From NCBI GenBank assembly GCA_035495615.1, contig DATJFP010000051.1, forward strand, positions 364-64,363: a DNA stretch of 64,000 nt. Direction: 5' to 3'. Shown here in pieces: positions 14,568 through 33,952 of this stretch. Numbering within the stretch: position 1 is the stretch's first letter; each line of letters starts with the position of its first letter. Under the pieces are notes generated by a model. That model did not search any database. It was not told where the DNA came from and saw nothing but the letters and a program-made list of their open reading frames with translations. The DNA comes from Verrucomicrobiia bacterium. GTDB lineage: Bacteria; Omnitrophota; Omnitrophia; Omnitrophales; Aquincolibacteriaceae. A program made the position numbers and the translations under genes.

Positions 14568-15055
14568 TGCGTCTCACCGGCCTGCCGCCGCTCACTCCTG
14601 AGCGTCCCCGGCTGCTGCTCCTCGGAACCTTTCCCGGCGTGCTCTCGCTCCAGAAGCGGGAATATTACGGAAACCCGATGAACGGCTTTTGGAAAATCCT
14701 GTGCGGCGCGCTCGGCGTTTCCGAGGTGCCTGCCGCTTACGCGGAAAAAAAGCGGATGCTCCGCCGGCACGGCATTGCCTTGTGGGATGTTTTCGGCTCG
14801 TGCGAGCGAAAAGGTTCCGGCGATCACATGATCCGGAATTTCTGCGTGAGCGATGTGCCGGGATTTTTAAAAAAACATCCGTCCATCCGGAAAGTGATTC
14901 TCGAAAGCCGCACCGCGGAGAAAATCTGGAAAAGCCATTTCGAAAAGCACACGTCCGTTCCCGGCGTTTATGTGCCTTCGCCGAGCAGCCGCGCGCGGCT
15001 TCCGCTGCCGGAAAAAATCAAGTGGTGGAAAAGGGCTTTGGAGAACGGCAAATAA
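14567..15055 (+). CDS. Uracil-DNA glycosylase superfamily protein (DNA-deoxyinosine glycosylase/HDG-like)
   Basis: LLLGTFPGVLSL...YYGNPMNGFWKIL matches the family 6 HDG signature (GSFPS...YYAHPRNxFW). Confidence 0.65.
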   Translation: MRLTGLPPLTPERPRLLLLGTFPGVLSLQKREYYGNPMNGFWKILCGALGVSEVPAAYAEKKRMLRRHGIALWDVFGSCERKGSGDHMIRNFCVSDVPGFLKKHPSIRKVILESRTAEKIWKSHFEKHTSVPGVYVPSPSSRARLPLPEKIKWWKRALENGK

Positions 15056-15097
15056 GGCCCCGTTGACGGGGAACCCGGCGCTTTCTATACTGCACGC

Positions 15098-16123
15098 GTG
15101 AAAAAGTCCTTTTACCTTGTCGTATTCCTGGCGGCCCTCAATGCCGCGGCCGCTTCCGTGCCCGCGCATTTCCGGCCGGCCTGGTGGAGTCTCGGCGCGC
15201 ATCCCCAGACGATCTGGGCCTTTCTTCTGCGTCCCTATCCCGACGTCCCTGTCCATCGTGAGCAGCTCGCGGCGCCGGACGGCGATTTCTTCGACGTGGA
15301 TTGGATGCCGGGAGAAGCCGGCGCGCCGGTGGTGATTATGGTGCATGGCCTTGGAAGCTCGTCCGAATCCAAGAACATGCGCACGCTCATGAAGGCGGTG
15401 CACGACAAGGGATGGCAGGGCGCGGCCTTGAACTGGCGCGGCGCGCTCAGCCCGAACAAGGCGCCGATAATGGATAATTCCGGGCGCACCGAAGATCTTG
15501 CCCAGCTCGTGCGGGAGGTCTTGTCGCGTTACCAGGCCAAGGAAATTTACCTGGTCGGCTACTCGGCCGGCGGCAACAAAGTCCTCAAATACCTCGGCGA
15601 GAATCCCCAGGCCGTTCCGCCCGAAGTCAAAAAAGCCGTGGCGGTTTCCGCGCCCTACGACCTGGAAAAATCCGTGGATAATCTGGACAAAGGCCTGGAT
15701 AAAGTGCTGTACACCAAGCGCCTTCTCAAGGCGCTCAAAGCGCGAGCCGCGGCGAAAGAAAAACAATTTCCCGGGCTGATTCCCGTGGAGAAGGCGGAGA
15801 AAGCCGGGACGTTCCGCGAATACGACCGCCTGGTCACCGCGCCTCTGGCCGGCTTCATGGACGAAAAAGAATATTACACGGCCGCAAGCTGCGGGAATTA
15901 TCTCGAAAAGATCGACAGGCCCGCGCTCCTCGTGCACGCGCGCAACGATCCTTTTCTGCACGGCGGCCAGCTGCCCCTGGAAAAAATCAAAAATTCCGCG
16001 TTCCTTCACCTCATGATGACGCCCGACGGCGGCCATCTGGGTTTCGTCACGGGGTTTGTCCCGTTCCGGACCGGGAACTGGCTGGAAAAAACTATCGTCG
16101 AATTTCTGGGTACCGATGCCTGA
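15098..16123 (+). CDS. Alpha/beta hydrolase, YheT-type
   Basis: HGLGSSSES, nucleophile elbow GYSAGGN, conserved C-terminal PDGGHLGF. Confidence 0.7.
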   Translation: MKKSFYLVVFLAALNAAAASVPAHFRPAWWSLGAHPQTIWAFLLRPYPDVPVHREQLAAPDGDFFDVDWMPGEAGAPVVIMVHGLGSSSESKNMRTLMKAVHDKGWQGAALNWRGALSPNKAPIMDNSGRTEDLAQLVREVLSRYQAKEIYLVGYSAGGNKVLKYLGENPQAVPPEVKKAVAVSAPYDLEKSVDNLDKGLDKVLYTKRLLKALKARAAAKEKQFPGLIPVEKAEKAGTFREYDRLVTAPLAGFMDEKEYYTAASCGNYLEKIDRPALLVHARNDPFLHGGQLPLEKIKNSAFLHLMMTPDGGHLGFVTGFVPFRTGNWLEKTIVEFLGTDA

Positions 16124-18266: not shown

Positions 18267-19061
18267 ATGAAAATTTTAAATCTTTCAATCGTCCTTATGC
18301 TTCTCGCGCCCGCGGCGTGGGCCGCGCCCGCCGTCATCGGCAAAGTGGAGCGCGTGCGCGGCCCGGTCGAATGCGCGGACGAGACGGGCGCCAAGCGCGA
18401 GCTCAAAAACGGCGGCGACGTTTACCTGCGCGACGTGATCGAGACCGGAAGCAGAGGCTATGTCAAAATCGACCTGCTCGACAAGACCAGCCTCACGGCC
18501 GGCGCCTCGAGCCGCCTTGTCCTCGACGAATTCGTTTATGACGCGGACGCGCGCTCGGGCAAGGCCGCGTTTTCCCTGGCGCGCGGCCTCTTCCGCCTGG
18601 TGACGGGCGAGATCGTAAAGCAAAATCCGGAGAACATGAAGGCCTCGCTCGCCGTGGGCGATTTCGGCATCCGCGGCACGGCCGTCCTCGCGCAGACTTC
18701 CGCGGACGGATCGCGCGTCGTCCTCGAAAGCCGGAGGCAGGACGCGCAGCTCGTGCGGCACGTCGTCGTCGGAGGCAGCGAAGCGAACGGCCGGCGGGGT
18801 GAGACCGCGCTGGAAAACGAAGGCGAGGCCTGCGACGTGAGGCCGGGGCAGCTGCCGGGCCAGAAATTTGCGCTCGGCGCGAAAGTCCTCGAAGCGATGC
18901 AGCAGGCTTTGGAACCGCCTTTGGAAGACGACGTTTTCGACCAGGTCGACAAGCTCAATGGGTCTCGTTCCGGCCGTCCGGGCGTGCAGCCCCGCGACAT
19001 GGAAGGCGGGCAGGAAAATGACGATTCGCAGCCTTCGCACGAAACCCGCTCCGGACAGTAA
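18267..19061 (+). CDS. FecR domain-containing secreted protein
   Basis: Signal peptide. GDVYLRD...TSLTAGASSRLVLDEF...ARGLFRLVTG...GIRGTAVLAQ follows the FecR beta-sandwich pattern. Confidence 0.55.
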   Translation: MKILNLSIVLMLLAPAAWAAPAVIGKVERVRGPVECADETGAKRELKNGGDVYLRDVIETGSRGYVKIDLLDKTSLTAGASSRLVLDEFVYDADARSGKAAFSLARGLFRLVTGEIVKQNPENMKASLAVGDFGIRGTAVLAQTSADGSRVVLESRRQDAQLVRHVVVGGSEANGRRGETALENEGEACDVRPGQLPGQKFALGAKVLEAMQQALEPPLEDDVFDQVDKLNGSRSGRPGVQPRDMEGGQENDDSQPSHETRSGQ

Positions 19062-19184: not shown

Positions 19185-22100
19185 ATGCGCCTCCTTACGT
19201 TCTGCAAAAAAACAACGGCCCTTTTTCTCTGCGCATCCCTGCTGCTTTCCGACGGCTCTCTTTATGCCGCGGCCACGGCCACGCCGTCCCAAGAGCTCGC
19301 GTTCCGGCTTCCCAAAACCTTCGCGGAGGTGCAGGAATCTTTCCGCGGGACTTCGGGGAAAACCATTTTTTATCTCCAGGACGCGCACGATTCGCTGGAA
19401 GCGCAGCGCAACATTGCCCGCAGCATCCGGTTTCTCGTCGAGAAGTACGGCGTGCGCACGGTTTTCGAAGAAGGCTACGAAGGCCCCGTGCCCACGGCGC
19501 GTTACTTCGGCTTCATGAAGGACGCGGCGGCGCGCAAAAAAGTCTCGGATTTCCTGCTCGACAAACTCAGGATCGGCGGCGCGGAGTACGCGCACATCAA
19601 CCGCGCGCACGACTTCAGGCTGATCGGCGCGGATGATCTTGCCAAATACAAAAAGAACCTGGCGGCTTACCGCGAATCCGCGCGGCATCAGAACGAAGTG
19701 GAGCGCGACCTGCGCGCGATTTCCGCCCTCGTCGAAGCGCTCGTCCAGCGCGATTTCCCGAAACCGCTCAAAGACTGGCTGAAGCTCCGCGACCGGCACG
19801 AAGCCGGGCAGGCGGACCTTCTGGATTACGTGAGGCGCGCCGTGAAGATGGCGGAGAATCCCGCGGGCGCGCCGCATCTCGCTCTTCTGGCCGAGGCTCC
19901 GGAATCTTCGGAAGCCGCGGCGGAACTTGCCGCCGTGGAGCCCCGCGCGATTTTCGAAGAGCTCGGCACGCTCGAGCAGGCCATTGCCGCGCCATTCCTG
20001 AAAACGCCCCGCGACCTCGAGCTTTTCCGGTACCGCGAGGCGCTTCACCTGCTGCTGCGGCTGAACCGGAGGGACGTGACGTCCTCGGAGTACGAGGCCT
20101 CGCAGCAGACGCTGGCCGACCTCGACACGCAGAAGCTTGCCGGATTTCTCGCGCGCGAGACCGGAAAATCCCTGGCGCTTTCCAGGGCCTGGGAGAAAAG
20201 CCTGCGGACCGCCTCGCTTTTTTACGAGACCGCGCTCGAGCGCGACGGCGCGGTCGAGGCCGCGCTTTCGAAGTTCCTGCGGGAGCCCGGCGAAAACGCG
20301 GCCGTCCTCGTCTACGGCGGCTTTCACAAAGACAACATCCTCGCCATCCTCAAAAAGCTGGGCGTTTCCTATCAGGTGGCCGCGCCCGCCATTCCCGCGC
20401 CGGATCCGGTGCATGAAAATTATTACCGGCAGCTCATGACGCTCGGCAGCCTCGCGTACGAACGGCCTTTCATGGCCGCGGGCGCGGCTGCGAAAGCCAC
20501 ACGCGCGCCGTCGTCGTTCGTGGAACCGTTCGGCGAAGCCGTGATCGGCGGCCTTTACCGCGCGGCCTCGCGCAATCCCCGCGTTTCCGCGGAGCTTCTC
20601 GACCGCGTGCTGGAAACATCGGGCAAATCCGAACTGCGGCGGCTGGACGACTTCAAGCTCAAGCGGCTGACCTACATCGATCTCGAGGGAGCCGAGATGG
20701 ACGAGCTCCTCGGCATTTACCAGCACATCCGCGAAAGCATGGAAGCTTCCGGCTATGAAGCGCTCGAGGAATTCGGGGACGACAGCCGTTTCCTTCATGT
20801 CGTCGAGAGTTTGAAAGAGACGAGTTACGGCATCACGAACGGGGAAGGCAACCTCGTCGGTTTTGTTTTGAATAACCCCTATCCCGCGGCAGGCGATGCT
20901 TACCTGGGCATCGAGCTCATCGGCATCGATCCGGAATATCAGCGGGAAGGATTTGGGCGCCGTCTTCTCGCCATGAGCCAGGTGCTCGGACGCAAGCTCG
21001 GGAAAAAGGCGCTCGCGATCGACGTGGATCCGCAGAATCTTCCGATGATCCGGCTTGCCCTCGGATTCGGTTTTCATTTCGTGGACCGGAACTGGAGGCG
21101 CCGGCGTTACGCGGGCATGATCAAGAACATTCCGCCGCTTAACGGCCACGACTCCAAAGCCGGCCGCGCGGAACTCCGCACCGGTGCCGATGCACCGGTA
21201 CAGCCAAACATTCCGCGCGCCGAACGCGCGGAATTGCGCCGCCTCAACGAGGCCCATACCGCCGCTGTCGTATCGATTTCCGATCTCGACGACGACGAGA
21301 CAGACGGCTTGCTGGGAGTTTATCAAGGCATCCGCGAAAATATGCTCCGCCAGGGCTTCGAACCTTATCAGGAATTTCAGGACGACGAAATGTTCGTTTC
21401 CGAAATGGAGAGGCTGGAGGAGGCAAGTTTCGCGGTGACGGATCAAGACGGAAACATGGCCGGCTTTATTTTGAACGATCCCGAGCCCGATGTGGGAGAG
21501 CAATATCTCGAAGTGGAGCTGATGGGCGTCGATCCCGGCCAGCGCCGGCAGGGCCACGCGCTCCAGCTTCTGGCCGCGAGCCAGTCGCTTGCCCGCCGGT
21601 GGGGAAAAACGGCGCTGTGGCTGGAAGTCGAGGCCAGCAACACTTCGGCCATCCGGCTTTATAAAGGCTTCGGCTTCAAGACCGCGGGCCGCGGCGAAGA
21701 GTCCGGTTACATTGTGATGAAGAAATACCTCCGGCATCACGCCCACGGCCAGCGTGAGGACAGATTCCGCGCGGAGCTGCGCTCGATCTATGAGCCCTGG
21801 CTTTTGAAACTGGCGGCCGACGCGCGTGTCGGCGTGAGGGATTTCGAAAGCACGGGCAAAGGTTTTCTCAAAATGACCGCCCAGCCGTTCGCGGACGGCG
21901 TGGTCGCGGCGTTTCCGGCGGATGCGCGGGGAAAAGTTTTTGTCGCGGGAAGCGGGCAGGGCCTTTTCGAAGTGAAGCTCGCGAAGGAGCGCCCGGGACT
22001 CTCGATTTTCGGCGTGGAATACGATCTCGGGCTTTTGGGCGACAGCCAGCGAATCGCGGCAAAGGCCCAGGAGCAGAAAATCATCAATCCCGGGCAGGTT

Positions 22101-25100
22101 ATTTTTCAGGGCGGCGACTTCAACGGCGCGGAATTCGGCGCCCGCATTGCCGAAGCGGATTATGTTTACTACTACGACGGCGGCACGAAAAAACCGGACG
22201 ACCTGGCGGAAACGCTTATCCGTTCCATGAAACCGGGCGCGCGCCTGATCGTGTTCGGTTCGCAGCGCTGGGAGCCGGATTTTGTGGACGCGCTGCGCCG
22301 CTCGGGCTCTTTCAAGCTCGAAACCGATGATCGTCCGGTTTATGTGCTCCTCCGGGAAGACCAGCCGTGGAAAACCGAAAACCGCGCTGAGCTCCGCTCC
22401 GGCGTCCCGCAGTGGCTGGAAGAGCTGATGCGCGAAAAGGGCATCGCGCTGCGGGCCGACGAAAGCACGGAGGCCGGAATTCTCGTGCCCACGGCGGGCC
22501 AGGCCGCGGCGCAGGTCATCAGTGCCGTGCCGGAAAAAACAAAGTTGAATATTTTTGCCGCGGGAAGCGGGCAGGGGATTTTCGAGCTGCAGCTTGCCAA
22601 AGAAAGGCCGGACGCGGAAATCTTCGGCGTCGAATATCATCTGGGCGCCCTCGGTGAAAGTCAGGCCCTTGCGGAAGAAGCAGAGAAAAGAAACCTCATC
22701 AAACCGGGGCAGGTCCAATTCGCAGGCGGGAATTTCAACAAGCCCGACTTTGCCGGCCGCATCGCGCAGGCGGACATTGTTTATTATTTTGACCAGGGAA
22801 CGAAGTTCCCCGAAGAATTCGCCGAAACACTTCAGCGTTCCATGAAAGCCGGCGCCCGCCTCATCGTCCTGGCCGCGGGCTCACGGGAGCCGCATCTTTT
22901 GGATGCGCTGCGCCGCTCGCTGGCGTTCGAAACGGAAAGCGCGGCCCATCCCGTCTATGTTCTCCGCCGTCTTGAAGCCGAAGGAGATGCCGCGCAAGGC
23001 CGCGCGCTTCTGAGGCAGTGGATGAAAAACGCGCCCGCCCTTCTCGAGCGTCCGGCGCTGGGCGCCGTGGTCGCGCTGCCTCCCGCGGGCACGAAACTGG
23101 ATGCCGATCCGGCGCGCCATGAACTCATGATGACGGCGCTTGTGGAGCGCCTCGTCGAAATCTACCGCGGCAATTTCCCCGATGCCTCTCCCGAAGAGAG
23201 AACGCCGGAGCATTGGCGCAAACAGCTGGAAGACCCGGACCTGCGCCTGCTCCTCAAAGTCGACACGCAGGGCCGCATCGAGGGCATGCTGGTGGCGCAA
23301 AATTGGGGAGTGGAACGCCCCACGCTGATGCTGAAAACCGTGGCGGTCACGTTCGAAGAGCAGCTGAAAAAGAAGGGGGCCATGCTCCTGGATGCTTTCC
23401 TGCGCGAAGTGCACGCGGCGGGCCTTGCCGCGGACATCTGGTGGCTGACCAACTTCAGGGTGATCTCGCTTTATAAAACCTATTTGTCCCGCCGCGGCAT
23501 TCCCTTTCGCTTTGATGATTACAACAAGTTCGAAGTCTCGGTCAAGGATCTGCGGGACTTCGTGAAGTCCAGCCGCTTTCCGCCTCCGAAACAGCCCGGC
23601 GATGTCGAGGCCCGTCTCGCCAAAAGAGTGCAGATCTGGGAAAAGACATATACGCTGGCCCACGTCGTGCGCGCGCTCGAGCACCGCTCAGGCCAATGGA
23701 GGCTGGGGCCCGCGATGTTCGAAGAGCTCGGCGAGGAAGACAAGGTCCTTGTCCTGGCCGCGCTTTCCGGAGAAACCCGCCGGCGTCTGGATTTTAATCT
23801 TTTGATCCAGGAATCGTGGGACGACGCCATCGCCCAGGCCGGCGGCGACGCGGGCAAAGCGCTGACGGCCCGCGAAAACGGCGCCGCGCTGCGGAAACTT
23901 TTGAGCACCCAGGTCTTCGAGGTTGGAAAACGTTTCGATGCGACCGGCATCGAAAACGGGTTCGACGACCTGGCGCAGATCATGCTGGAAGGCAAGGTGC
24001 GCTCGGACCATCACGGCTCTCTTATCGGCCATGCTCAATTCGGCGACACGGCCTCCGGGCTGCACGGCCCGCTCTACGTTGTGTTCAAAAAACGGACCGC
24101 GGATGAAACCTGGCGCGAAAGGGACAACCACCTTTATTACCTCGTTCCCGAATGGAGCGACGCGCGCGCCTACGTGATCCTGCTCCAGAAAGCCGCGGCG
24201 CGCCATTTGATTCTGCCGGAGCTCGCGGCCTCGATCGCGCAGAAAATCATCACCTACCGGCAGTTCGTGGACCGGAATTCAGAGCTGCGTTCCGCGGACC
24301 GGCGTTTGTCTCTGGAAGAAATTCTCGGGCCGGAACACGTTCAAATCATGGACCGCTTTTTCGCCGAAGGCTATTGGATCGAGCTCGAAGGCGCCGGCCG
24401 TGAAAGAAAGGTTCTTGTTCACCATCGTGATCCTTCGAAATTCCGCGCCTACCAGGAGCCGCCGGGAAAATATTCCCTCGTCGAGGCAGAAAATGGGACA
24501 GCCCAGCTCAGCGGCATTTATCCCGGCCTTCCTCAAAATACCCAATTCGGCCGCATTTTCATCGCGTTGTCGCTGCTCATGCTTTATGGGGACCGCGAGG
24601 CGCGCAAAATTTTTGAAATCCATGCTATCCAGAGCAAGACTTTGGCCGGAAGCCTGCAGAAGCTCGGGGCCTTCGGAACCGCATCGATCTACCCCGCGGC
24701 CGCGCACGGCGCCTATGCCGATGTCGCCATCCGCGGAAGCGTGCCATTAATCGACGAGGCCGGAGCCGCCGAGATCCGCCGGCGGAATGACCGCAATAAA
24801 TCTGCCGGGGAACAGCAACACCCCGAATTGCGCGGGTTGGAAGAGGTTCGCGCCTATCTGGACAGCCGGCCGCACGCGGTTTGGTATGCAAGCTACGACG
24901 AAGCCGGGCAGGAATCCGTCGAGTACGTGAATCCTGCGTTCGCGAAAATATTCGGCACCACCGCGGAGGACATCCTCGCCAAGAAGACGTATGCGGCGAT
25001 CAACCCTCCGGGTGCGCCCATCGACAAGTACAAGGCCGACGACCGGAAGGCGATGAAACGCGGCCTGTTCGCGGCGCGCGAAGGCGAGCCCGCCGTTACG

Positions 25101-28100
25101 GTGGTGAAAATCAAAATGGGAAAAGGCGTTTTGGGCATGTTCACGCCGGCCGCGTCCAAGGGAAAGCTTTCCTTTAAGAATCTGGAGCCGGAACTTGCCG
25201 AAACCCTGAGAGAATTCAATTACACTTCCGGAACTTTCCTCACGCGCCGCGAAAAAAAGATGATCGAGCATTCCTATCATAACGGCTTCCTGCGGCAGGG
25301 GGACGTCCCGAGTCGCCCGCTCTGGCTTTTCGGCGAGCATGAAGCGGTCATGCCGTTCGTGGCCAGTCAGTTCGGAGAATCAGAAGTGCCCGTCGTGGCG
25401 CCGGAACTTTACCGCGATAAGCGCGTTCTCGTGGCCCCTGGCTACGGTAATCTTCCATTCCTGGTGCGGATGCTCGGCGCGCGCGAGGTCGTGGCTGTTG
25501 ACAGTGATCCCGTGACGATCGCCTGGCAAAAATTGAAATGGAAAACCGGCGGCCGTGACGCGATGCAATGGCTTTTTACTTACGAGCATTCCGGGTCCAT
25601 CCCGCGCATGCATCATCGCGGGACCTGGTATGCCAGGCTCAACCGCCCTCAGGCGGCGGACGTGATGACCGGGCTTTCTTTTTATACGGACAACGTCCTG
25701 AAGCCTCTCGGCCGCGGCAAATTCGATTTGATCGTGACGCCTTATTTGTTCGGATTCCCGGGCGGCCTTGACATGGAAGAGCTGGCCAATCAGGCCCTGG
25801 ACAATTTCCGGGAAAGCCTGGCCGAAGGCGGCCGTATTCTGATCCTGCCGGGAAAAATCGAATCAGCTCAGATTGCGGAAAGCCGCTCGAAAGATATTTT
25901 TCAGCACTACCAGGAATGGCTGGAAGGCCTGAAGGCCAAAGGCTGGGATGTGCAGTACAGCGAGGCTTACCCGTTTTATGATTTCAGCCAGGGGAATGTC
26001 CAGGGCCGCTACGCGATCCTGACGCCTCCGAAATCCGAGCTTCGAGCGGCGCAGACCGCGCTCGAATTGAAGGGCTTCGACGACAGAGCGCCGCTCTGGG
26101 CTTTTCTCATGGCCTTCGGCATCGACCCGGCGCGGGCACGCGTGAAGCCTCTCGAGGATAAATGGGGACGCGTGGAAGTCGCGCAAGACGCAGTGTTCGG
26201 CGTGCCCGCGGGCAAGCCGCTTCAGGATGCCGTCTACGAAAGCGCCATGGGCATTTTCGGCGAACGCGAGATCGAGCCGCTGTTGGAAAAGAACGGGCAC
26301 TCGAAGGAAACGGCCCTCAACTATCTTTATCTTCTGACCTATGAAAATAAACCCGCGGCGCTGGTCTGGGCCATTCCGGGCGCGCCGTTTTCTCCCATCC
26401 CGTTTTATTCGTTTACCGTCCAGAGCCAGGCGTCTTTCTGGCAGAGTCCGGGCGGGGGACAAGCTCAAACTTTCGCTGACGCGCGTCTCGAGGAGTTCAT
26501 CCGCCGGCACCACAAAAAAGATTACGGCAAAAACCCTGTTCTGCAGGGAGGCATCCCTCTTGATGCGGCCAATAACGGCATCCGCGGGATTCCCTGGCTT
26601 CAATTGAGGGAATTCAAAAACGGCGTAGTCCTTCCGACCGTATTTACCCTGGACCATGATTCGACACAGGATCTTTGGACGTTCGTGCAGCGCGTCGAAA
26701 GTTTGGGGATCGTCAGCCTGGCCGGCAAAACGGTCTCCGAAGTGGGCGCCGGCGCGGGATGGCTCGGCGCGCAAGCCGCTTCGCGCGGCGCGCAGGCCGC
26801 GCTTTACGATTTGACTCTTATCAAGGCCGCAAGCGCGTGGCTGACGGCCAAACGGAACGGTGTCGCGGACAACGTCTCTTCTTTCCGCTCGAAGGACGCT
26901 TCCATCCTGCCGCCCAGCGATCTTTATCTGTGGAACATTCCCGATTTTTCAAATCAAGCCCCCGATCTTTCCAAGGGCGGGCCCATGACGCAGAATGACA
27001 ACATCGACGTCAACAACCGCGTCAGGCCGGAAGACGTCGAAAAAGTTTTCCGCGAAGTGCGCGCCAAGGCCAAGCCGGATTCGCTTTTTGCCGTGCGCAT
27101 TAACACCAAGGACAAATCCGCGTTCCGGCATTTGGCACGGGCCGCGGGATGGGAAATTCATCCCCGTGAATTGGACATCGATACCAAGGATTTGGCCGGC
27201 GGCCTGTATTTTGTGCTTCAGCCTTCGCGTCCGGAGCCCAAGGACATTCGAGCCGTGCTCCGCCAGGCAAAATCCGTAGAGGATTATGCGGGCTTGGGCC
27301 GCATGGTCGACGTGGAAGAGGTTCTGCGCCTTCTCCCGCTCGAGGAAGAAAGGCAGGCGCTCGGCAGCGCGCTTTTTGAGGTGAGTAAGACGGCGTTTGA
27401 AATGGACGTGGACGAGGACTTCGTGCCCGTGCCCCTGGTTTCCGATGCTTCTGCGCGGCGCTTCTTTTTCGTGGATGATACGGGCTCGATCACGGGATAT
27501 GTGAAGTTCCGCGTCAAAGAGGGCGAAGCCTTTCTCGATGACATCGAGACGCTGAAGATCACGGACCGGAAGCCCGGACGCGGGCAGATCCTGATGAACT
27601 ATGCATTGCGCCAGATGAGAAAGGAAGGGTTCGGCCGCGTGATTTTATATCCCACGGAAAAAGCGATGCCCTTTTACGACACTTATGCTCAGGCGCGCGG
27701 CCTGGTTTTCGGCCTGGTCGATCCGCTGCATGACCGCTACAAATTTTTCATCGATTTCTCCGGCGCGCCGGACACAGCCCTGCAAAAAATCGTCCTCAAG
27801 GAATCCGGCCATCCGGAGCTGCGCGCCGTTCCCGACGAGACTCTGGCTTCGATGCTGTCCGCGGCTTTCGAGCAGGCGTTCCTTGGGCATCAGGCCTTCC
27901 TGGCTCCGGAAGACGAACGGCGTTTCGAAGCCATGCCGGACATCGAAGTGGGCGAGGAAGAAGAGTTCCCGCGCTTTCCGTTCCGTTTCAACGGCCCGGA
28001 CACCGTGCGCGTTTCCCGCTCCTTTCTCCAGATGCTGCAAAATCCCGCGGGCGCCGGCCTCATGCCCGGCCCTGAGTGGCTCCGCGAAACCGCGAGCGTT

Positions 28101-31100
28101 ATCGAAAAGAGGCGGGCCAATCCTCTGTCGGAATACGTTTACAACACCGTGTTCATGGAAGCCTTGAACGCCTGGCGCCGCGCCACGGGCCGTGAGGTTC
28201 CCGAGATGGAAATCATCGAGATCGATCCGGGGCAGTTTCCTCCCTCGGAGCCGGCGGGACAACGAAAAGTCCCGGCGTCCGAAGACCTGGTCAGCGGGGT
28301 GGACGCCATGGTCGCGCGGGTCAATAAGCTTGCCGCAGAAGCCGCGGCGGAAATCGGCAGCGGCACCGTGACCGCTTATTATGATGGAAGCGAAGCGGGC
28401 GCCGTCCGGGTCCGGGGCGGAAAAGTTCCCGAAGGCATGACGCTCGGATGGAAGACCGCGCTTTTCGTGGGCGAGGAGATCGCGGGCTCGGGACAGACGG
28501 ACCGCCTGCCCGAAGCCGACGAATTCCTTCGCGTCACGCGCGAAGGTTCGGCGATCAAAGTGGAGCTGGTGAAAAGCGAACTGCGATCGACGAATGGCGA
28601 AAGCGAAACCGAAATCGAGACGTATGAATTGAAACGCCGAAGCGCGCCGGAGGATGATTTTGCCAAGGTCACGCTTTTTAAGGACGCGTCCGGCGTGATC
28701 CAGGAAGCGTACCTCACGTTTGCCGAGCGCAAGGTCGAGGCCGTGGTCAAACAAAAGACCGTGCAGGCCAAAGAAGTGCGCTGGATCAAGATGGACATCG
28801 AGAAAAAGCAGGCCGTCAATTTCGTGCGCCTGAAGAACGCGAAGAACGAAGTGATCGAAACGCGGCAGTTTCCGCACAAAGATTTGCAGCCGGATTATTT
28901 CGCGGACATTCAGGACGCGGTGCTCGCTCTTTCCGATCAGATCGACGAGCTCAAGGCGCGCCGCGTCGACGGCGACGACCAGAGCCCGGAAGCGCTTTCG
29001 CTCGAAGAATCCCTTCAGGCGCTCGTCCACGTGCGCCGGCTCGTGGGCAATGTTTTCCGCGCGGCGCCGGCGCCGGATTTTGTTTCCATCACGCTCGGGC
29101 CGCACCGCGAAATCAAAGTGCGCCTTATCCAGGACGAAGCCGCGGGCGAACTGCGCGCCGTGTTTCCGTTCTCGGAAGAGCCGGAGCATCACGAACAGCA
29201 TCAGTTCGTCATCACGATCAATCCCCACGCGCAGCCGGCGGTCGCGATTCACATGTACGTCCGCCGCGTCCACGAAGGCGAGCTGATCGATGCGCTCGAC
29301 GTGAGGCCCGGGCCGGGCGAGCCCGCGCACGCGGACACGGGCTTCAGCTTCGAAGACCCGGAAGCGGAAGAAGACCAGGATTACGAACTCAGCATGTCGG
29401 ACATCCAGATGGCGCTCGAAGACTGGTTCGAGAGCCTGCCCGCGGAGCAGCAGACGCCTTTCCTGCGCGAGCGCATTTTCGAAACGCTGGCCTCGCTTTT
29501 CAAGGAATCCGAAGACGCCGCGCCTTCGCGCACGCTTGCCGAACACGCGGCCCTTTACGCGCCGGCCTTTGAATTGATGTCGGCGGCGGGGCGGAAGGAA
29601 CAGATTGTCCGCGAGCTGCGGCTTATCGGGAACCGCGCCAAGGCGCTTTCGGCGCGCGCGAAAAAATACGAATGGCTGGAGAATCTTTCGCTGGTCGCAT
29701 TTCTCCTGAGCGTGCGCCTGGAAGAAGCGAGTGTCAACTTTACCTCACGGCATCCGGAAATCCTGGAAGTGACCGTGGGATTTTTCGAGCAGTTCGGCGA
29801 AGTCTTTCCCGCCCTGACCGAAGACAGCACCCTCCTGGGACGGCTTTCCAAAAATCCGGGGCAGGAATACGAGCTTCTCATCCAGCTCGCGGAGGTCCTC
29901 CGCAATGAATTGCGCGCGGAAGATCTCGACGAGGGCACGCTCCACAAGTGGATCAAGGGCAATTACGTGGGGGATCTGGCGGCCTGGATCCGCGACCCGA
30001 ACGCGGCGCCGGAAGTCCGGCTTGACCGCGCGCGGCGCTACCTTATCGGGGCCGGCCTCATCCCTCATCATGGCGCCGTGCTGTCGGCCGTCGCGGCGGA
30101 GACGGGGCAGCACGTGGAGAATTACGTGTACCGGATGAACGAAGAAATCTTCGATCGCCTGGAAACCATGGCCCGGGAAAAGAAAGGTTACGTTCCCGGC
30201 GTGATTTATTTCAACGACGAAGGCCTGCTGCGGAATTTTTCCGCGCCGCTGGCCGCCTTGCCGGAGGTGCATTCGGAGCTTGCCCAGCGGTTTTTCGGCG
30301 TCGAAGGCATCAAGCTTCTGCGCGAAGTCCTGCCGCCGCAATCCGAAGAACACTGGTGGAATACTCTGGGGACCCTTGAAAATCCCGAGGGCATGCGGCA
30401 GTGGATTCTGGACACGCTCGTGCCGTCTTTGCGCGAAGCCAATCGCCGGAAATTTCGCCCGGAACTGCGCTCCGCGAAAAGTGAAACCGCGGAGGCGGAT
30501 TTCGAAGCGTCGGTCCGGAAATTCGCTTCTCTTGTGCGCCGCGATACCATCCTGGCTCTGGGTGAAAATCCCGACGACGAGAAATCCATGCTGGAATGCC
30601 CGATGTGCGCCATGGCGACGCCGCTGATAAATAATCTGGCGGCCGAATTTTTCAAGAACGATCCCGCCGTCAAGGTTGAAAGCTGGGGCGGGCTGGTGAG
30701 GCAAGCGGGCTCCGAAGGGCAGGCGAATCCGCCTTCCTTTTTCCATTTCTGGACGGAGATCGAACGGGAAGGAAAACGTTTTTACGTCAGCGTGATGGAC
30801 GGCCAGATGGGCGTGAGGGAATGGGCCTTGGGACCGAACGTGACCGAGCTTCCGGCCGGAGACGGCAAATACGAATTCTTGAAAAGTTCCGGATGGCGAA
30901 TCGTCATGGCTGAAAAACAGGACATGATGCGCATCTACCGGTTTGTCGCGCGGCTTTCGAATCTCCAGCATTTCGAAGACGCCGGAAGCCCTCTCCACAG
31001 CGCCGAAGCCGTGCGGGACCACTTGGGGCGGATGGCTTCGCTGTTGATCAAGGAAGGTATTTTCCAAGGCAAGACGGAACTTCGCACTGCCAGAAACAAA

Positions 31101-31691
31101 GCTTTGGATGCCGTGGGGAAAAAATCCCTGGAGCAGTTTGCAATGCCTGCCGCCGTTTTTCTGGAGGCGCGCGAGCTGGTCCAGCTGACCCCGGCCCAGT
31201 CGAGCCGGCAATGGGAAGAAATCCTGACGCTCGTCTCCCTGCACAAAGGGCTCGACGTGTACATAACCGGCACGGACCGTTATCCTCTTTCGAACCTGAA
31301 ACTCCCCAAACTCCAGAAACTCCTGGCCGAACATTCGGACCGCCTCCATCTGGGCCTGCACGACCGCGCGAATCTCGCCAAAAAGAAAATTTTCATCCAG
31401 GCGTCTTTTATTTCCGGCGGCACGGCGAAGGACACGGAAAAGCTGCTGGCCTCGCTCAAGCAAAGCTATGGCATCCGCCAAGCCGTGTATGCGCTGGATT
31501 ACGCCCAGGCCGGCGCCTTGCGCGCTTTTCTCGGCATCGCGGAATCTTTCAAAGAAGCCGAGCTCATCCGGCAGATCGGCGAAGCCTACGCGGTCCGCGG
31601 GCCGAACGGGCGCTGGCAGATCGCGCAAACCTACCTGAACTCGGTCTGGACCGAGATGCAGAACCGCTACGCAGTTGCCTGGTCCGCGTAA
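19185..31691 (+). CDS. Giant secreted multidomain protein (4168 aa). It combines a possible Tiki/ChaN-like N-terminal domain, four GNAT acetyltransferase-like modules, four Rossmann SAM-methyltransferase-like modules, a PAS-like module and a ~1300 aa helical C-terminal region.
   Basis: A 12.5 kb open frame in a 64% GC genome. N-terminal signal peptide (MRLLTFCKKTTALFLCASLLLSDGSLYAAA). GNAT Q/R-x-x-G-x-G/A motifs: QREGFGRRLL, QRRQGHALQLL, PGRGQILMNYAL. Rossmann G-x-G-x-G motifs: VAGSGQG, AAGSGQG, EVGAGAGWLG, VAPGYGN. PAS-like stretch VEYVNPAFAKIFGTTAEDIL. Confidence 0.8.
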   Translation: MRLLTFCKKTTALFLCASLLLSDGSLYAAATATPSQELAFRLPKTFAEVQESFRGTSGKTIFYLQDAHDSLEAQRNIARSIRFLVEKYGVRTVFEEGYEGPVPTARYFGFMKDAAARKKVSDFLLDKLRIGGAEYAHINRAHDFRLIGADDLAKYKKNLAAYRESARHQNEVERDLRAISALVEALVQRDFPKPLKDWLKLRDRHEAGQADLLDYVRRAVKMAENPAGAPHLALLAEAPESSEAAAELAAVEPRAIFEELGTLEQAIAAPFLKTPRDLELFRYREALHLLLRLNRRDVTSSEYEASQQTLADLDTQKLAGFLARETGKSLALSRAWEKSLRTASLFYETALERDGAVEAALSKFLREPGENAAVLVYGGFHKDNILAILKKLGVSYQVAAPAIPAPDPVHENYYRQLMTLGSLAYERPFMAAGAAAKATRAPSSFVEPFGEAVIGGLYRAASRNPRVSAELLDRVLETSGKSELRRLDDFKLKRLTYIDLEGAEMDELLGIYQHIRESMEASGYEALEEFGDDSRFLHVVESLKETSYGITNGEGNLVGFVLNNPYPAAGDAYLGIELIGIDPEYQREGFGRRLLAMSQVLGRKLGKKALAIDVDPQNLPMIRLALGFGFHFVDRNWRRRRYAGMIKNIPPLNGHDSKAGRAELRTGADAPVQPNIPRAERAELRRLNEAHTAAVVSISDLDDDETDGLLGVYQGIRENMLRQGFEPYQEFQDDEMFVSEMERLEEASFAVTDQDGNMAGFILNDPEPDVGEQYLEVELMGVDPGQRRQGHALQLLAASQSLARRWGKTALWLEVEASNTSAIRLYKGFGFKTAGRGEESGYIVMKKYLRHHAHGQREDRFRAELRSIYEPWLLKLAADARVGVRDFESTGKGFLKMTAQPFADGVVAAFPADARGKVFVAGSGQGLFEVKLAKERPGLSIFGVEYDLGLLGDSQRIAAKAQEQKIINPGQVIFQGGDFNGAEFGARIAEADYVYYYDGGTKKPDDLAETLIRSMKPGARLIVFGSQRWEPDFVDALRRSGSFKLETDDRPVYVLLREDQPWKTENRAELRSGVPQWLEELMREKGIALRADESTEAGILVPTAGQAAAQVISAVPEKTKLNIFAAGSGQGIFELQLAKERPDAEIFGVEYHLGALGESQALAEEAEKRNLIKPGQVQFAGGNFNKPDFAGRIAQADIVYYFDQGTKFPEEFAETLQRSMKAGARLIVLAAGSREPHLLDALRRSLAFETESAAHPVYVLRRLEAEGDAAQGRALLRQWMKNAPALLERPALGAVVALPPAGTKLDADPARHELMMTALVERLVEIYRGNFPDASPEERTPEHWRKQLEDPDLRLLLKVDTQGRIEGMLVAQNWGVERPTLMLKTVAVTFEEQLKKKGAMLLDAFLREVHAAGLAADIWWLTNFRVISLYKTYLSRRGIPFRFDDYNKFEVSVKDLRDFVKSSRFPPPKQPGDVEARLAKRVQIWEKTYTLAHVVRALEHRSGQWRLGPAMFEELGEEDKVLVLAALSGETRRRLDFNLLIQESWDDAIAQAGGDAGKALTARENGAALRKLLSTQVFEVGKRFDATGIENGFDDLAQIMLEGKVRSDHHGSLIGHAQFGDTASGLHGPLYVVFKKRTADETWRERDNHLYYLVPEWSDARAYVILLQKAAARHLILPELAASIAQKIITYRQFVDRNSELRSADRRLSLEEILGPEHVQIMDRFFAEGYWIELEGAGRERKVLVHHRDPSKFRAYQEPPGKYSLVEAENGTAQLSGIYPGLPQNTQFGRIFIALSLLMLYGDREARKIFEIHAIQSKTLAGSLQKLGAFGTASIYPAAAHGAYADVAIRGSVPLIDEAGAAEIRRRNDRNKSAGEQQHPELRGLEEVRAYLDSRPHAVWYASYDEAGQESVEYVNPAFAKIFGTTAEDILAKKTYAAINPPGAPIDKYKADDRKAMKRGLFAAREGEPAVTVVKIKMGKGVLGMFTPAASKGKLSFKNLEPELAETLREFNYTSGTFLTRREKKMIEHSYHNGFLRQGDVPSRPLWLFGEHEAVMPFVASQFGESEVPVVAPELYRDKRVLVAPGYGNLPFLVRMLGAREVVAVDSDPVTIAWQKLKWKTGGRDAMQWLFTYEHSGSIPRMHHRGTWYARLNRPQAADVMTGLSFYTDNVLKPLGRGKFDLIVTPYLFGFPGGLDMEELANQALDNFRESLAEGGRILILPGKIESAQIAESRSKDIFQHYQEWLEGLKAKGWDVQYSEAYPFYDFSQGNVQGRYAILTPPKSELRAAQTALELKGFDDRAPLWAFLMAFGIDPARARVKPLEDKWGRVEVAQDAVFGVPAGKPLQDAVYESAMGIFGEREIEPLLEKNGHSKETALNYLYLLTYENKPAALVWAIPGAPFSPIPFYSFTVQSQASFWQSPGGGQAQTFADARLEEFIRRHHKKDYGKNPVLQGGIPLDAANNGIRGIPWLQLREFKNGVVLPTVFTLDHDSTQDLWTFVQRVESLGIVSLAGKTVSEVGAGAGWLGAQAASRGAQAALYDLTLIKAASAWLTAKRNGVADNVSSFRSKDASILPPSDLYLWNIPDFSNQAPDLSKGGPMTQNDNIDVNNRVRPEDVEKVFREVRAKAKPDSLFAVRINTKDKSAFRHLARAAGWEIHPRELDIDTKDLAGGLYFVLQPSRPEPKDIRAVLRQAKSVEDYAGLGRMVDVEEVLRLLPLEEERQALGSALFEVSKTAFEMDVDEDFVPVPLVSDASARRFFFVDDTGSITGYVKFRVKEGEAFLDDIETLKITDRKPGRGQILMNYALRQMRKEGFGRVILYPTEKAMPFYDTYAQARGLVFGLVDPLHDRYKFFIDFSGAPDTALQKIVLKESGHPELRAVPDETLASMLSAAFEQAFLGHQAFLAPEDERRFEAMPDIEVGEEEEFPRFPFRFNGPDTVRVSRSFLQMLQNPAGAGLMPGPEWLRETASVIEKRRANPLSEYVYNTVFMEALNAWRRATGREVPEMEIIEIDPGQFPPSEPAGQRKVPASEDLVSGVDAMVARVNKLAAEAAAEIGSGTVTAYYDGSEAGAVRVRGGKVPEGMTLGWKTALFVGEEIAGSGQTDRLPEADEFLRVTREGSAIKVELVKSELRSTNGESETEIETYELKRRSAPEDDFAKVTLFKDASGVIQEAYLTFAERKVEAVVKQKTVQAKEVRWIKMDIEKKQAVNFVRLKNAKNEVIETRQFPHKDLQPDYFADIQDAVLALSDQIDELKARRVDGDDQSPEALSLEESLQALVHVRRLVGNVFRAAPAPDFVSITLGPHREIKVRLIQDEAAGELRAVFPFSEEPEHHEQHQFVITINPHAQPAVAIHMYVRRVHEGELIDALDVRPGPGEPAHADTGFSFEDPEAEEDQDYELSMSDIQMALEDWFESLPAEQQTPFLRERIFETLASLFKESEDAAPSRTLAEHAALYAPAFELMSAAGRKEQIVRELRLIGNRAKALSARAKKYEWLENLSLVAFLLSVRLEEASVNFTSRHPEILEVTVGFFEQFGEVFPALTEDSTLLGRLSKNPGQEYELLIQLAEVLRNELRAEDLDEGTLHKWIKGNYVGDLAAWIRDPNAAPEVRLDRARRYLIGAGLIPHHGAVLSAVAAETGQHVENYVYRMNEEIFDRLETMAREKKGYVPGVIYFNDEGLLRNFSAPLAALPEVHSELAQRFFGVEGIKLLREVLPPQSEEHWWNTLGTLENPEGMRQWILDTLVPSLREANRRKFRPELRSAKSETAEADFEASVRKFASLVRRDTILALGENPDDEKSMLECPMCAMATPLINNLAAEFFKNDPAVKVESWGGLVRQAGSEGQANPPSFFHFWTEIEREGKRFYVSVMDGQMGVREWALGPNVTELPAGDGKYEFLKSSGWRIVMAEKQDMMRIYRFVARLSNLQHFEDAGSPLHSAEAVRDHLGRMASLLIKEGIFQGKTELRTARNKALDAVGKKSLEQFAMPAAVFLEARELVQLTPAQSSRQWEEILTLVSLHKGLDVYITGTDRYPLSNLKLPKLQKLLAEHSDRLHLGLHDRANLAKKKIFIQASFISGGTAKDTEKLLASLKQSYGIRQAVYALDYAQAGALRAFLGIAESFKEAELIRQIGEAYAVRGPNGRWQIAQTYLNSVWTEMQNRYAVAWSA

Positions 31692-32625: not shown

Positions 32626-32645
32626 TACCATAAATTTTTATGGTA
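32626..32645. promoter_or_regulatory. Candidate LexA operator: TACCAT-AAATTTTT-ATGGTA
   Basis: Perfect 6-bp inverted arms with an 8-nt A/T spacer, 12 nt upstream of the lexA ATG. The position is consistent with autoregulation. Confidence 0.45.
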
Positions 32646-32657
32646 TATGAGTGCGGT

Positions 32658-33284
32658 ATGGAAAAGAAACCCCTGACCGATAACCAGCGCAAGGTGCTGG
32701 AATACCTGCTTAAGACCAAGGCGCAAAGGCATAACTTTCCTTCGCTCCATGAAGTGCAGGCGCATTTCGGGTTCAAAGCCGTGGGCACGGTCCAGGATTA
32801 TCTCTCCGCGCTCCAGCGCAAGGGCTACATCCGCAGGACGGCCAAGGCCCGCGACATCGAGGTGCTGGACTCGGACGGCATGGACATGGCGCCCGAAGGC
32901 CTGGTCCGGCTTCCGATCGTGGGACAGGTGGCCGCGGGAACGCCGATCCTGGCCGAGGAAAATATCGAAGGGCATTTCCTGGTGGACCGGGAGGCCGCGG
33001 TAAAAAACAGTTTCCTGCTGCGGGTCCGCGGAGACAGCATGACCGGCGCGCACATTCTAGACCGGGACCTGGTGGTGGTCCGGCCCCAGAAGGTCTGCGA
33101 AAACGGCGAGATCGCGGTGTGTCTCGTGGAAGGAGAAGCCACGGTGAAACGTTTTTACCGCCGGGCCGCGCACATCGAGCTCAAAGCCGAAAATCCGGCG
33201 TACCAACCGATCCTCGTCAAGCCGCAGCAGAAATTTTCGCTGGTCGGGAAAGTCTGCGGCGTTATTCGTCTGAACATGTTTTGA
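32658..33284 (+). CDS. lexA: LexA repressor (S24 peptidase)
   Basis: N-terminal wHTH (LTDNQRKVLEYL...GYIRR). Cleavage-site region VAAG. Catalytic GDSM Ser and a downstream Lys in VKRFY. Confidence 0.9.
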   Translation: MEKKPLTDNQRKVLEYLLKTKAQRHNFPSLHEVQAHFGFKAVGTVQDYLSALQRKGYIRRTAKARDIEVLDSDGMDMAPEGLVRLPIVGQVAAGTPILAEENIEGHFLVDREAAVKNSFLLRVRGDSMTGAHILDRDLVVVRPQKVCENGEIAVCLVEGEATVKRFYRRAAHIELKAENPAYQPILVKPQQKFSLVGKVCGVIRLNMF

Positions 33285-33370
33285 AATAAGATTAGTGGAA
33301 ACAGCCCCTCGCGGTTTTCCGTACCGCCAGAAGCTACCCCGAAGCTGGTCTCGCAACTAAAGGCCATCCC

Positions 33371-33952
33371 ATGGATCTGGCGCTTCTGAAAAATCTCGGC
33401 GTTCATGAAAAGGTCGTCCGTGCTCTGGAAAAAACAGCGGGCGAAAAATTCGAAGTCCTCGAAATCGAACAAAGCGCCTCCAGCCTCAGGCTCATCCTCC
33501 GCTGCCGCCCGGAAGCGGGAGTGAAACCCCACATCCTTACGCTCCGCGATTTTGTGCCTGTTCCGGCCGCGGGAACGGCCGAGCCCGAAGCGGCTTACGC
33601 GGCCGGGCGGCGGGAACATTATTTGTGCGCGGACCGCCTTCATCTGTTTCCCCAGCCCGGGTCCGGGCAGGCCAACCTTGCGATCAATGGACAAAAGTTC
33701 CGGATGGGTGAATCGCTTTTCCGGCTGCTCTTTCATCTGGCCCGGGAAATGAAAAGTAATGGAAGCGGGTGGATTTCGATCCAGGACCTGCGGCAGGCGC
33801 GCTGCATTCCCTCCGACGGGTATCAGGCGTTCAGCCGCCTGCGGAGCGTGGTGGCGGGGTATCTGCTGAAGAAGAACCCGAGGGAATTCCTGGAGGCGAA
33901 CGGCGGCAAACAGTACCGCGTTTCGCTGCCGCCGGAAAACATCGATTTCTGA
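33371..33952 (+). CDS. Hypothetical protein
   Basis: 193 aa. No recognised motif. Balanced composition. Confidence 0.5.
   Translation: MDLALLKNLGVHEKVVRALEKTAGEKFEVLEIEQSASSLRLILRCRPEAGVKPHILTLRDFVPVPAAGTAEPEAAYAAGRREHYLCADRLHLFPQPGSGQANLAINGQKFRMGESLFRLLFHLAREMKSNGSGWISIQDLRQARCIPSDGYQAFSRLRSVVAGYLLKKNPREFLEANGGKQYRVSLPPENIDF

Follow-up and report, generated by a model that had tools for sequence, protein, structure and literature searches.

Results

A giant secreted protein with a recurrent motif at its module junctions

The window analysed here, a 64,000-nucleotide stretch of a genome assigned to the phylum Omnitrophota (GenBank assembly GCA_035495615.1, contig DATJFP010000051.1, positions 364 to 64,363 of the forward strand), contains a single uninterrupted open reading frame (ORF) at 19185-31691 (+), which encodes a protein of 4168 residues (GC content at third codon positions, GC3, 0.73) whose modules are separated by a short motif ending in Glu-Leu-Arg (ELR). 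The original prediction had noted a recurrent (A/P/S)ELR at module boundaries between 20630 and 30490, a range that lies wholly within this ORF, and had proposed that the sites are either the cut points of a polyprotein or inter-module docking linkers.

The chain opens with a predicted Sec-type signal peptide, MRLLTFCKKTTALFLCASLLLSDGSLYAAA... (residues 1-29, 19185..19271), made of a basic n-region and a hydrophobic core and ending in LYAAA, and all aligned homologs have the same N-terminal pattern. A leader domain with a TIKI/erythromycin-esterase/ChaN-like fold follows (residues ~40-425, 19302..20459), then a low-confidence tail and linker (residues 426-480, 20460..20624), a long array of modules and a conserved C-terminal domain (residues ~3984-4168, 31134..31688). 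In Pfam scans, four GNAT acetyltransferase domains are recognised, together with several weak matches to class-I methyltransferases and a weakly PAS-like stretch, and more than half of the protein is without annotation.

Twelve sites fit the pattern [RKHN][SAPT]ELR and all of them stand between modules (all features given here are on the forward strand). The first, GKSELR (residues 481-485, 20625..20639), aligns with RSEMR, RSEAR or RSAMR in homologs and is followed by the first GNAT acetyltransferase module (20640..21164; PF00583, E 1e-10). GRAELR (residues 661-665, 21165..21179) and ERAELR (residues 681-685, 21225..21239) form a tandem pair, the second 20 residues past the first, ahead of the second GNAT module (21240..21767; PF00583, best stretch at residues 725-831). 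The fourth site, FRAELR (residues 862-866, 21768..21782), precedes a methyltransferase-like module with a weak Pfam match (21783..22382), and the fifth, NRAELR (residues 1067-1071, 22383..22397), a multi-domain module with methyltransferase-like, GNAT and unannotated parts and no internal motif (residues 1072-1697, 22398..24275). RNSELR (residues 1698-1702, 24276..24290) and QHPELR (residues 1879-1883, 24819..24833) come next, the latter followed by a module with a weakly PAS-like N-terminal part (24834..26030). PKSELR (residues 2283-2287, 26031..26045) and GHPELR (residues 2876-2880, 27810..27824) enclose a module with methyltransferase-like and GNAT parts (26046..27809). The last three are VKSELR (residues 3130-3134, 28572..28586), FRPELR (residues 3758-3762, 30456..30470) and GKTELR (residues 3963-3967, 31071..31085), which lies directly before the C-terminal domain and aligns with the RSEAR and RSEVR of the homologs P0037 and P0038.

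The ten ELR strings that had been quoted in the original prediction are all present, with their Glu at residues 483, 663, 683, 864, 1069, 1881, 2285, 2878, 3132 and 3760; two sites of the same class had been missed, NSELRS at residue 1700 (24276-24290) and KTELRT at residue 3965 (31071-31085), the second of which lies beyond the end coordinate then given. In the remaining three ELR (residues 3322, 3477 and 3575), position 2 is G, R or N; these copies are found inside a module, and three is the number expected by chance. A small residue (S/T/A/G) follows the motif in 10 of the 12 sites. None of the sites falls within any Pfam domain envelope, so the placement of the motif at module boundaries, as opposed to burial in domain cores, is borne out.

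The enrichment is equally clear. ELR is the commonest tripeptide of the protein, with 15 copies against 2.93 expected from composition and a highest count of 9 in 5000 residue shuffles, and [APS]ELR occurs 11 times against 0.63 expected (shuffle maximum 6). In the other predicted proteins of the window, the broader pattern [SAP]E[LMVIA]R occurs five times overall and at most once per protein.

The motif belongs to a family of Omnitrophota proteins

Relatives were found with the leader region (the first ~440 residues) as query. The homologs come essentially all from metagenome-assembled genomes (MAGs) of Candidatus Omnitrophota, and a scan of one genome per GTDB species gave 165 confirmed relatives, often several per genome. 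Motif statistics were computed on the leader-containing ORFs of 80 loci, amounting to 216,000 residues. R-[SA]-E-[LMVIA]-R is present in nearly all of these 80 relatives, with 3-16 copies in the long ones. The relaxed word RxExR occurs 499 times against 98 expected; its position 2 is Ser 58-fold over expectation, and its position 4 is L, M, V, A or I in 427 of the 499 words and never basic among the residues listed. The two commonest 5-mers, RSELR (109) and RSEVR (86), both outnumber the invariant leader words used for selection. The density of the motif is 1.85 per thousand residues, compared with 0.12 for the rest of the ORFs (150 residues or longer) in the same loci. Most of the hits outside leader ORFs belong to a dozen long ORFs that each contain at least two motifs; the three of these with their N-terminus inside the locus all carry the leader, and the 5'-truncated ones that were examined end in the C-terminal tail of the family. 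Compared to this family form, the window motif is relaxed, since position 1 may be K, H or N and position 2 A, P or T, position 4 being always Leu. On sequence grounds, the [RKH][SAP]ELR sites are the version of the phylum-wide R-[SA]-E-[LMVIA]-R used by the source organism.

For Arg, Ser and Leu alike, the motifs of the relatives make use of all six codons. Selection therefore acts on the peptide, in line with the earlier remark that codons differ between copies and that conservation holds at the protein level. The same observation rules out a DNA-level signal, such as a recombination site or an RNA element. It also bears on whether the motif has a function at all. Some modules are recent internal duplicates that brought their preceding motif with them, as would be expected of a remnant copied with duplicated modules or of a compositional accident. 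However, the 17-fold enrichment in the window, the 58-fold preference for Ser at position 2 across the 80 proteins and the use of all synonymous codons speak against this explanation, as does the fact that the motif flanks non-homologous modules and is conserved among genomes with leaders only 35-50% identical; we consider it effectively refuted. We are highly confident that the motif serves, at the junctions between modules, as a specific and functional recognition element.

At position 2, ~18% of the family sites and 7 of the 12 window sites have Ala, Pro or Thr in place of Ser, which means that Ser is neither an obligatory nucleophile nor an obligatory phospho-acceptor. We reject an intein-like or N-O acyl-shift self-cleavage, as no conserved nucleophile is available when this Ser can be Ala or Pro. 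The motif could in principle be a site of post-translational modification that regulates the modules, either by phosphorylation of the Ser in R-S-E, which resembles basophilic or acidophilic kinase contexts and sits in an exposed linker, or by modification of Arg or Glu. We regard this as very improbable, given that Ser is so often replaced, the invariant positions being R, E and R, and that neither the family nor its neighbourhood has a conserved kinase or modifying enzyme.

Family genes often occur in tandem, with a second leader- and motif-bearing ORF directly before or after the first (for example L016 18763-21354, L075 17919-21524, L056 3089-6865 and L020 3-7817). Those of L016 and L075 have a divergent leader subtype (IQDAHVNxEAQ...LEGASGE). 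The family as a whole, that is, leader, RSExR-delimited cargo and C-terminal domain, is recognised by neither Pfam nor NCBIfam. A search of literature full text for the RSExR motif matched only unrelated alginate-lyase and modelling papers, and the literature searched contains no description of the motif or of the leader and C-terminal families.

A conserved C-terminal domain completes the architecture

Complete ORFs of the family end in a conserved domain of ~185 residues, the last residues of which read hydrophobic-x-x-[SA]-A in 22 of 26 cases (...AVAWSA-COOH in the window protein). In an alignment of C-terminal regions, RSExR is the only sharply conserved column block upstream of this domain. 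A homolog search with the last 419 residues returned two proteins, and a profile of the C-terminal domain run against 1.84 billion representative proteins returned 28, in which the domain is always at the extreme C-terminus. This selection is independent of the leader, and ten long proteins with genuine N-termini obtained in this way carry the leader; in most, a motif lies 195-211 residues before the C-terminus. One protein of 6247 residues has 17 sites, 16 RSELR and one RAELR. The domain itself is Rossmann-like alpha/beta, with only generic fold matches and no conserved catalytic residues. A secretion signal, an anchor or a recognition tail are candidate roles for its invariant C-terminal dipeptide. 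Deduced from these sequences, the family layout is signal peptide, leader, RSExR, (cargo, RSExR)n and C-terminal domain.

The cargo of the relatives comprises methyltransferase, GNAT, NUDIX and SNF2/DEAD helicase domains. In P0050 (3478 residues) and P0048 (1533 residues), SNF2/DEAD helicase and NUDIX modules follow a Sec signal peptide. The cargo enzymes use cytoplasmic cofactors (acetyl-CoA, S-adenosylmethionine, nucleoside triphosphates) although the chains bear signal peptides, a combination that fits effectors released in a target cell; the presence of DNA- or nucleotide-directed enzymes in apparently exported proteins likewise suggests an action inside another cell.

The residue at position 4 follows the genome

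Position 4 is Leu in all 28 sites of the genome CAYSSX, distributed over three paralogs and using all six Leu codons, and in all 27 sites of JAUYMS (five paralogs), as opposed to Ala in 16 of the 21 sites of CAYGIT (three paralogs) and 9 of the 12 of MHFR. The mutual information between the genome and the position-4 residue is 0.89 bits, the maximum of 2000 permutations being 0.45. Neither GC content (0.46-0.56) nor amino-acid usage explains this preference. Furthermore, the leader paralogs of one genome, at 41-51% identity, resemble one another no more than they resemble the leaders of other genomes, but have the same motif variant in common. Such uniformity across old paralogs is what would be expected of a genome-encoded or genome-specific reader, and the pattern implies what looks like the signature of a co-evolving reader.

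The sites lie in hydrophilic, probably flexible linkers between cassette-like units

The flanks of the motif have no sequence conservation. In the relatives, there is a mild excess of S/P/A/G upstream, of S/T/A directly after the motif and of acidic residues downstream. Hydrophobic residues, whose fraction is otherwise 0.33, make up 0.19-0.23 at 5-10 residues or less from the motif and are back at background by ~25 residues on each side. Two termini of the window protein were modelled with AlphaFold2 (AF2). In the leader model (predicted local distance difference test, pLDDT, 86.7), residues 426-470, which lead to the first site, have a pLDDT of 29-41. In the model of the last 234 residues (pLDDT 83.8), the KTELR site is part of a stretch at ~49-57, and the confident C-terminal domain begins ~20 residues after it. 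The low confidence at or before both modelled sites agrees with the linker context that had been anticipated, while for the internal sites linker status is based on Pfam envelopes, hydropathy and module homology together with these two termini.

The modules delimited by the motif behave as cassettes. GNAT 1 and GNAT 2 are 45% identical, and methyltransferase-like module 1 is 53% identical to the start of the next module, both pairs being in register from the preceding motif. Two units of the window protein, 1884-2287 and 2288-2880, have homologs in L002, the closest long relative (units 2988-3279 and 2325-2987, respectively), where their order is reversed, and the alignments of these units stop or start at the motif in both proteins. 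A search with the GNAT 1-GNAT 2 region gave no homologs at E <= 1e-3. In the relatives, inter-site spacing is bimodal: 50 of 325 gaps are shorter than 50 residues, and the rest have a median near 300 residues. The short tandem gaps span 11-50 residues with unconserved spacers, the example in the window being that of 20 residues from residue 663 to 683. It had been suggested that cleavage would release individual GNAT and methyltransferase enzymes, and this holds only in part: the motif does delimit modules, but some inter-motif units hold two or three domains (residues 1072-1702, methyltransferase, GNAT and a part without annotation; residues 2288-2880, methyltransferase and GNAT), and not every domain boundary has a site.

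The leader resembles hydrolases of the TIKI superfamily

The AF2 model of the leader consists of an alpha/beta core, in which a parallel beta-sheet is flanked by helices, and of a helical insertion of ~190 residues. It is structurally similar to solved members of the TIKI/erythromycin-esterase/ChaN superfamily, which includes the RRSP endopeptidase. An alignment of homologs reveals the invariant residues D66-A-H68, E95-E96, R129, E134/H137 and R353 and the near-invariant G-G-F-H381, and in the model the parallel strands carry the His and Glu residues at their C-terminal ends. Active members of the superfamily have a catalytic set of two His and two Glu with a conserved Arg, namely E3900, H3902, E3930, R4001 and H4030 in RRSP, with the pair H85 and E113 in Bcr135 (PMC6254334). 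The 28 residues between H68 and E96 of the leader equal the spacing of H3902-E3930 in RRSP and of H85-E113 in Bcr135, and the 28 residues between R353 and H381 compare with 29 for R4001-H4030. The spacing and the strand-end placement in the model suggest that the His/Glu/Arg/His residues of the leader may be the counterpart of the RRSP/Bcr135 catalytic set.

At E values up to 10, the leader has no match to the superfamily Pfam profiles (TraB_PrgY_gumN, Erythro_esteras, Cofac_haem_bdg); NCBIfam gave no match, and a hidden Markov model search against PDB sequences gave nothing relevant. The distance from the leader to the first motif is constrained, the first site being 65-140 residues past GGFH in 68 of 77 proteins.

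Neighbouring genes

The neighbours of the giant ORF are ordinary chromosomal genes, encoding a FecR-domain protein, an aminotransferase, an alpha/beta hydrolase, LexA and a class-II glutamine amidotransferase. The small secreted FecR-domain protein is encoded immediately 5' of the giant ORF (18267-19061, +) and has weak matches to a LapA-type 'retention module' and to a Leptospira adhesin; its gene is not kept beside family genes in other genomes. On the 3' side, LexA and the following 193-residue protein (32640-33952, +) are 77% and 60-62% identical, respectively, to the products of genes beside the family members L001 and L002, which identifies the MAGs CAYRBY and CAYSSX as the nearest relatives of the source organism. 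When the products of 12 window neighbours were compared with the 80 loci by tblastn, synteny was found only with these two closest relatives and was limited to LexA and its neighbour.

A lone KSELRN, compatible with chance, is present at residue 131 of a 216-residue membrane or secreted protein without Pfam match (36677-37327, +). Further away, the window encodes two MMPL-family transporters (12399-14567 and 39926-42334) and, at 53583-58099, an OEP (outer-membrane efflux) gene followed by an ORF of 1043 residues that is likely an RND pump; these are ordinary envelope and efflux genes, consistent with a diderm organism. Gene limits are unclear 3' of the MMPL gene (13415-15055 and 14567-15100), where an overlapping ORF of 546 residues has a weak match to the uracil-DNA-glycosylase superfamily in its C-terminal part, and a separate gene of this type may begin near 14600.

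Discussion

Proposed processing of the polyprotein

Based on the above data, we propose that the motif sites are endoproteolytic processing sites of a secreted multi-enzyme polyprotein, a reading to which we give about an even chance. The chain, consisting of the leader domain, the cargo modules (GNAT, methyltransferase, PAS-like and others without assignment) and the C-terminal domain, would be exported by the Sec pathway and, after export, cut at the motif sites into about 12-13 pieces, whereupon the cargo enzymes would act as separate proteins. Endoproteolysis appears the most economical explanation for a strict short motif placed in flexible linkers, for tandem sites with unconserved spacers, for a cassette-like cargo of unrelated enzymes and for the fusion to a hydrolase domain from a superfamily that contains sequence-specific endopeptidases. 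The cut would probably occur after the terminal Arg, and the small residue that usually follows fits this assignment. A cut between positions 1 and 2 is disfavoured by the Pro found at position 2 in three window sites, whereas cleavage between the invariant Glu and the hydrophobic residue that follows it is conceivable.

The best candidate for the protease would be the TIKI/erythromycin-esterase-like domain at the N-terminus of the family's own proteins, acting in cis, or in trans between paralogs, but we put forward the leader as the processing enzyme only tentatively and rate it as rather doubtful. The trypsin-like or subtilisin/kexin-like protease that had initially been considered finds no support: neither the protein nor the window genes scanned yielded an S1 or S8 domain, and the site is not dibasic. 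In its most ambitious form, the proposal would make RSExR the cleavage code of a phylum-wide self-processing system of effector polyproteins with a TIKI-type leader protease and effectors destined for prey or host cells, the position-4 residue then being a lineage-specific specificity code that co-evolves with the protease. This complete scheme is speculative and, in our judgement, unlikely as a whole.

Several observations weigh against cleavage, against processing by the leader, or against a motif devoted to linkers. First, words resembling RSExR are also found in the final helix of the C-terminal domain, within the last ~20 residues (L004, L012, L043, L048, L065, P0007 and P0049), and, in many loci, where the leader ends, at a fixed position 65-80 residues past GGFH, so that the word is not always in a linker. 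The leader-end copies have a hydrophobic residue at +2 (RSELRMI, RAELRVL), and both kinds, which are absent from the window protein, may be structural or pseudo-substrate elements instead of linker sites. Second, P0008 (L081 10001-11296) is a stand-alone secreted leader of 431 residues with neither cargo nor motif, encoded on a 461-kb contig of 37% GC and adjoining ATP-grasp, Peptidase_Mx-like and fasciclin genes; the leader domain therefore exists independently of polyproteins. A strict cis model is further at odds with P0056, a leaderless family member with its own signal peptide. Third, the tblastn comparison with the 80 loci gave no conserved neighbouring protease gene, and no endopeptidase other than LexA was found among the window genes scanned. 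Finally, the sharing of one position-4 variant by divergent paralog leaders mildly favours a single trans-acting reader over many cis-acting leaders. Leader residues have only weak associations with the position-4 preference, which are confounded by phylogeny and concern variable, surface-like positions, and we take them as evidence neither way.

Some of these points would be rationalized by a recognition or docking element that is not cleaved, in which a partner (an export chaperone, a secretion or translocation machine that takes the very long chain one segment at a time, an adaptor, or the leader or C-terminal domain itself) binds repeatedly and organises the modules. The strict R/E/R, the genome-specific position 4 and the linker location fit binding as well as they fit cleavage, the RSExR-like words in structured C-terminal helices and at the leader end suggest that the word can be a contact surface, and no dedicated protease was found nearby. 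On the other hand, the unconserved spacers between tandem sites are typical of processing and difficult to explain by docking, the sole conserved enzyme-like domain is from a hydrolase superfamily with site-specific endopeptidases, unrelated independent enzymes would gain little by staying tethered, and we know of no chaperone or secretion signal of the RSExR form. We therefore view docking as a serious competitor that is nonetheless unlikely to be correct.

Cleavage could also be carried out by another trans-acting bacterial protease, or by a protease of the prey or host, with the leader fulfilling an unrelated function (esterase, haem or ligand binding, attack of the target envelope). In favour of this, the motif variant follows the genome and not the leader phylogeny, the leaderless P0056 and the stand-alone P0008 exist, and the TIKI/Ere/ChaN superfamily includes non-proteases, for example esterases and a haem binder. 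Nevertheless, we judge this possibility improbable because no conserved candidate gene lies beside the family genes in the 80 loci, every motif-rich ORF with a visible N-terminus carries the leader, and the first motif is held at a constrained distance from it; moreover, a host enzyme would need to be conserved across very different hosts.

Relation to known systems

The closest functional analogue of the proposed system is the design of the MARTX toxins of Vibrio and its relatives. These are likewise very large secreted proteins with conserved termini around a variable, shuffled array of unrelated effector enzymes, and their short inter-effector linkers are cut by an in-built protease so that the effectors act separately in the target cell (PMC6254334). 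The leader fold is even that of one MARTX effector, RRSP, although in MARTX this TIKI-fold domain is cargo and not the processing enzyme. The family described here differs from MARTX by belonging to a different phylum, by lacking, in Pfam scans, RTX or glycine-rich repeats and any match to Peptidase C80, the inositol-hexakisphosphate-activated cysteine protease of MARTX, or to another cysteine peptidase, by its N-terminal Sec signal peptide, as opposed to type I secretion without such a peptide, and by its strict R-S-E-x-R linker signature. The cut sites of MARTX linkers are loose Leu-containing sequences. As for the TIKI/TraB-PrgY-GumN/erythromycin esterase/ChaN superfamily, to which the Ras/Rap1-specific endopeptidase RRSP and the Wnt-cleaving Tiki belong, the leader shares its fold but has no profile match to it and carries the additional helical insertion of ~190 residues; a TIKI-type domain fused to the N-terminus of multi-enzyme polyproteins is not described in the literature searched.

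Recurrent short motifs as cut points have precedents elsewhere. RgpA, Kgp and HagA of Porphyromonas gingivalis are processed after Arg or Lys, and the P97/P102 adhesins of Mycoplasma hyopneumoniae are cut at S/T-X-F|X-D/E in disordered regions. In both cases, as proposed here, one product is cut at recurrent short exposed motifs to give several functional pieces, with Arg-directed cutting in the gingipains, but the motifs are looser, the products are adhesin or protease domains as opposed to arrays of enzymes of cytoplasmic type, and there is no relationship in sequence, fold or taxon. The kexin/furin (R-X-K/R-R) and trypsin-type sites share with RSExR a terminal basic residue, a second upstream Arg and often a small residue after the site. 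In contrast to kexin/furin sites, the motif has a hydrophobic residue (L/M/V/A/I) before the terminal Arg and an invariant Glu at P3, and its upstream Arg, at -4 from the final Arg, would be P5 and not P4 if the cut follows that final Arg.

Significance

The Omnitrophota, ultra-small and uncultured bacteria that apparently live as predators or parasites, are known for multi-enzyme proteins of extreme length. Among these are the giant 'Archaeovorin'-type proteins, with lengths in the tens of thousands of residues, for which peptidase domains of the C39 and S8 types have been invoked (10.1101/2023.11.21.568195; 10.64898/2026.06.07.730766). Many transmembrane helices and SecA-like domains are further features of this type. 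The present family shares with these the phylum, the methyltransferase, GNAT, NUDIX and HATPase-type cargo domains and the signal peptides, and is set apart by the size of the protein (4168 residues in the window), the TIKI-like leader and an explicit junction motif; Pfam scans of the window protein revealed no C39 or S8 peptidase and no SecA-like domain. Post-translational cleavage of the giant Omnitrophota proteins has been suspected, with the cleavage points stated to be unknown (West-Roberts et al. 2023, 10.1101/2023.11.21.568195), and the words 'motif' and 'cleavage' are absent from the text of a 2026 survey of 916 long Omnitrophota proteins (10.64898/2026.06.07.730766). The same RSExR code may mark the cleavage points of the Archaeovorin proteins as well. 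For one Omnitrophota predator, a metaproteome is publicly available from the Ca. Velamenicoccus archaeovorus enrichment (PXD025008, cited in PMC12583861).

With hundreds of sites over dozens of genomes, RSExR provides the first concrete, testable candidate cut points of such proteins and a rational way to divide them into units for structure prediction, and its genome-specific position 4 offers a natural system for the study of protease/site co-evolution. Lastly, if the leader is indeed the processing enzyme, this would represent a new role and a new specificity for the TIKI-like hydrolase superfamily, and effector delivery of the MARTX type would have a counterpart in the Omnitrophota from which all the defining domains of MARTX are absent.

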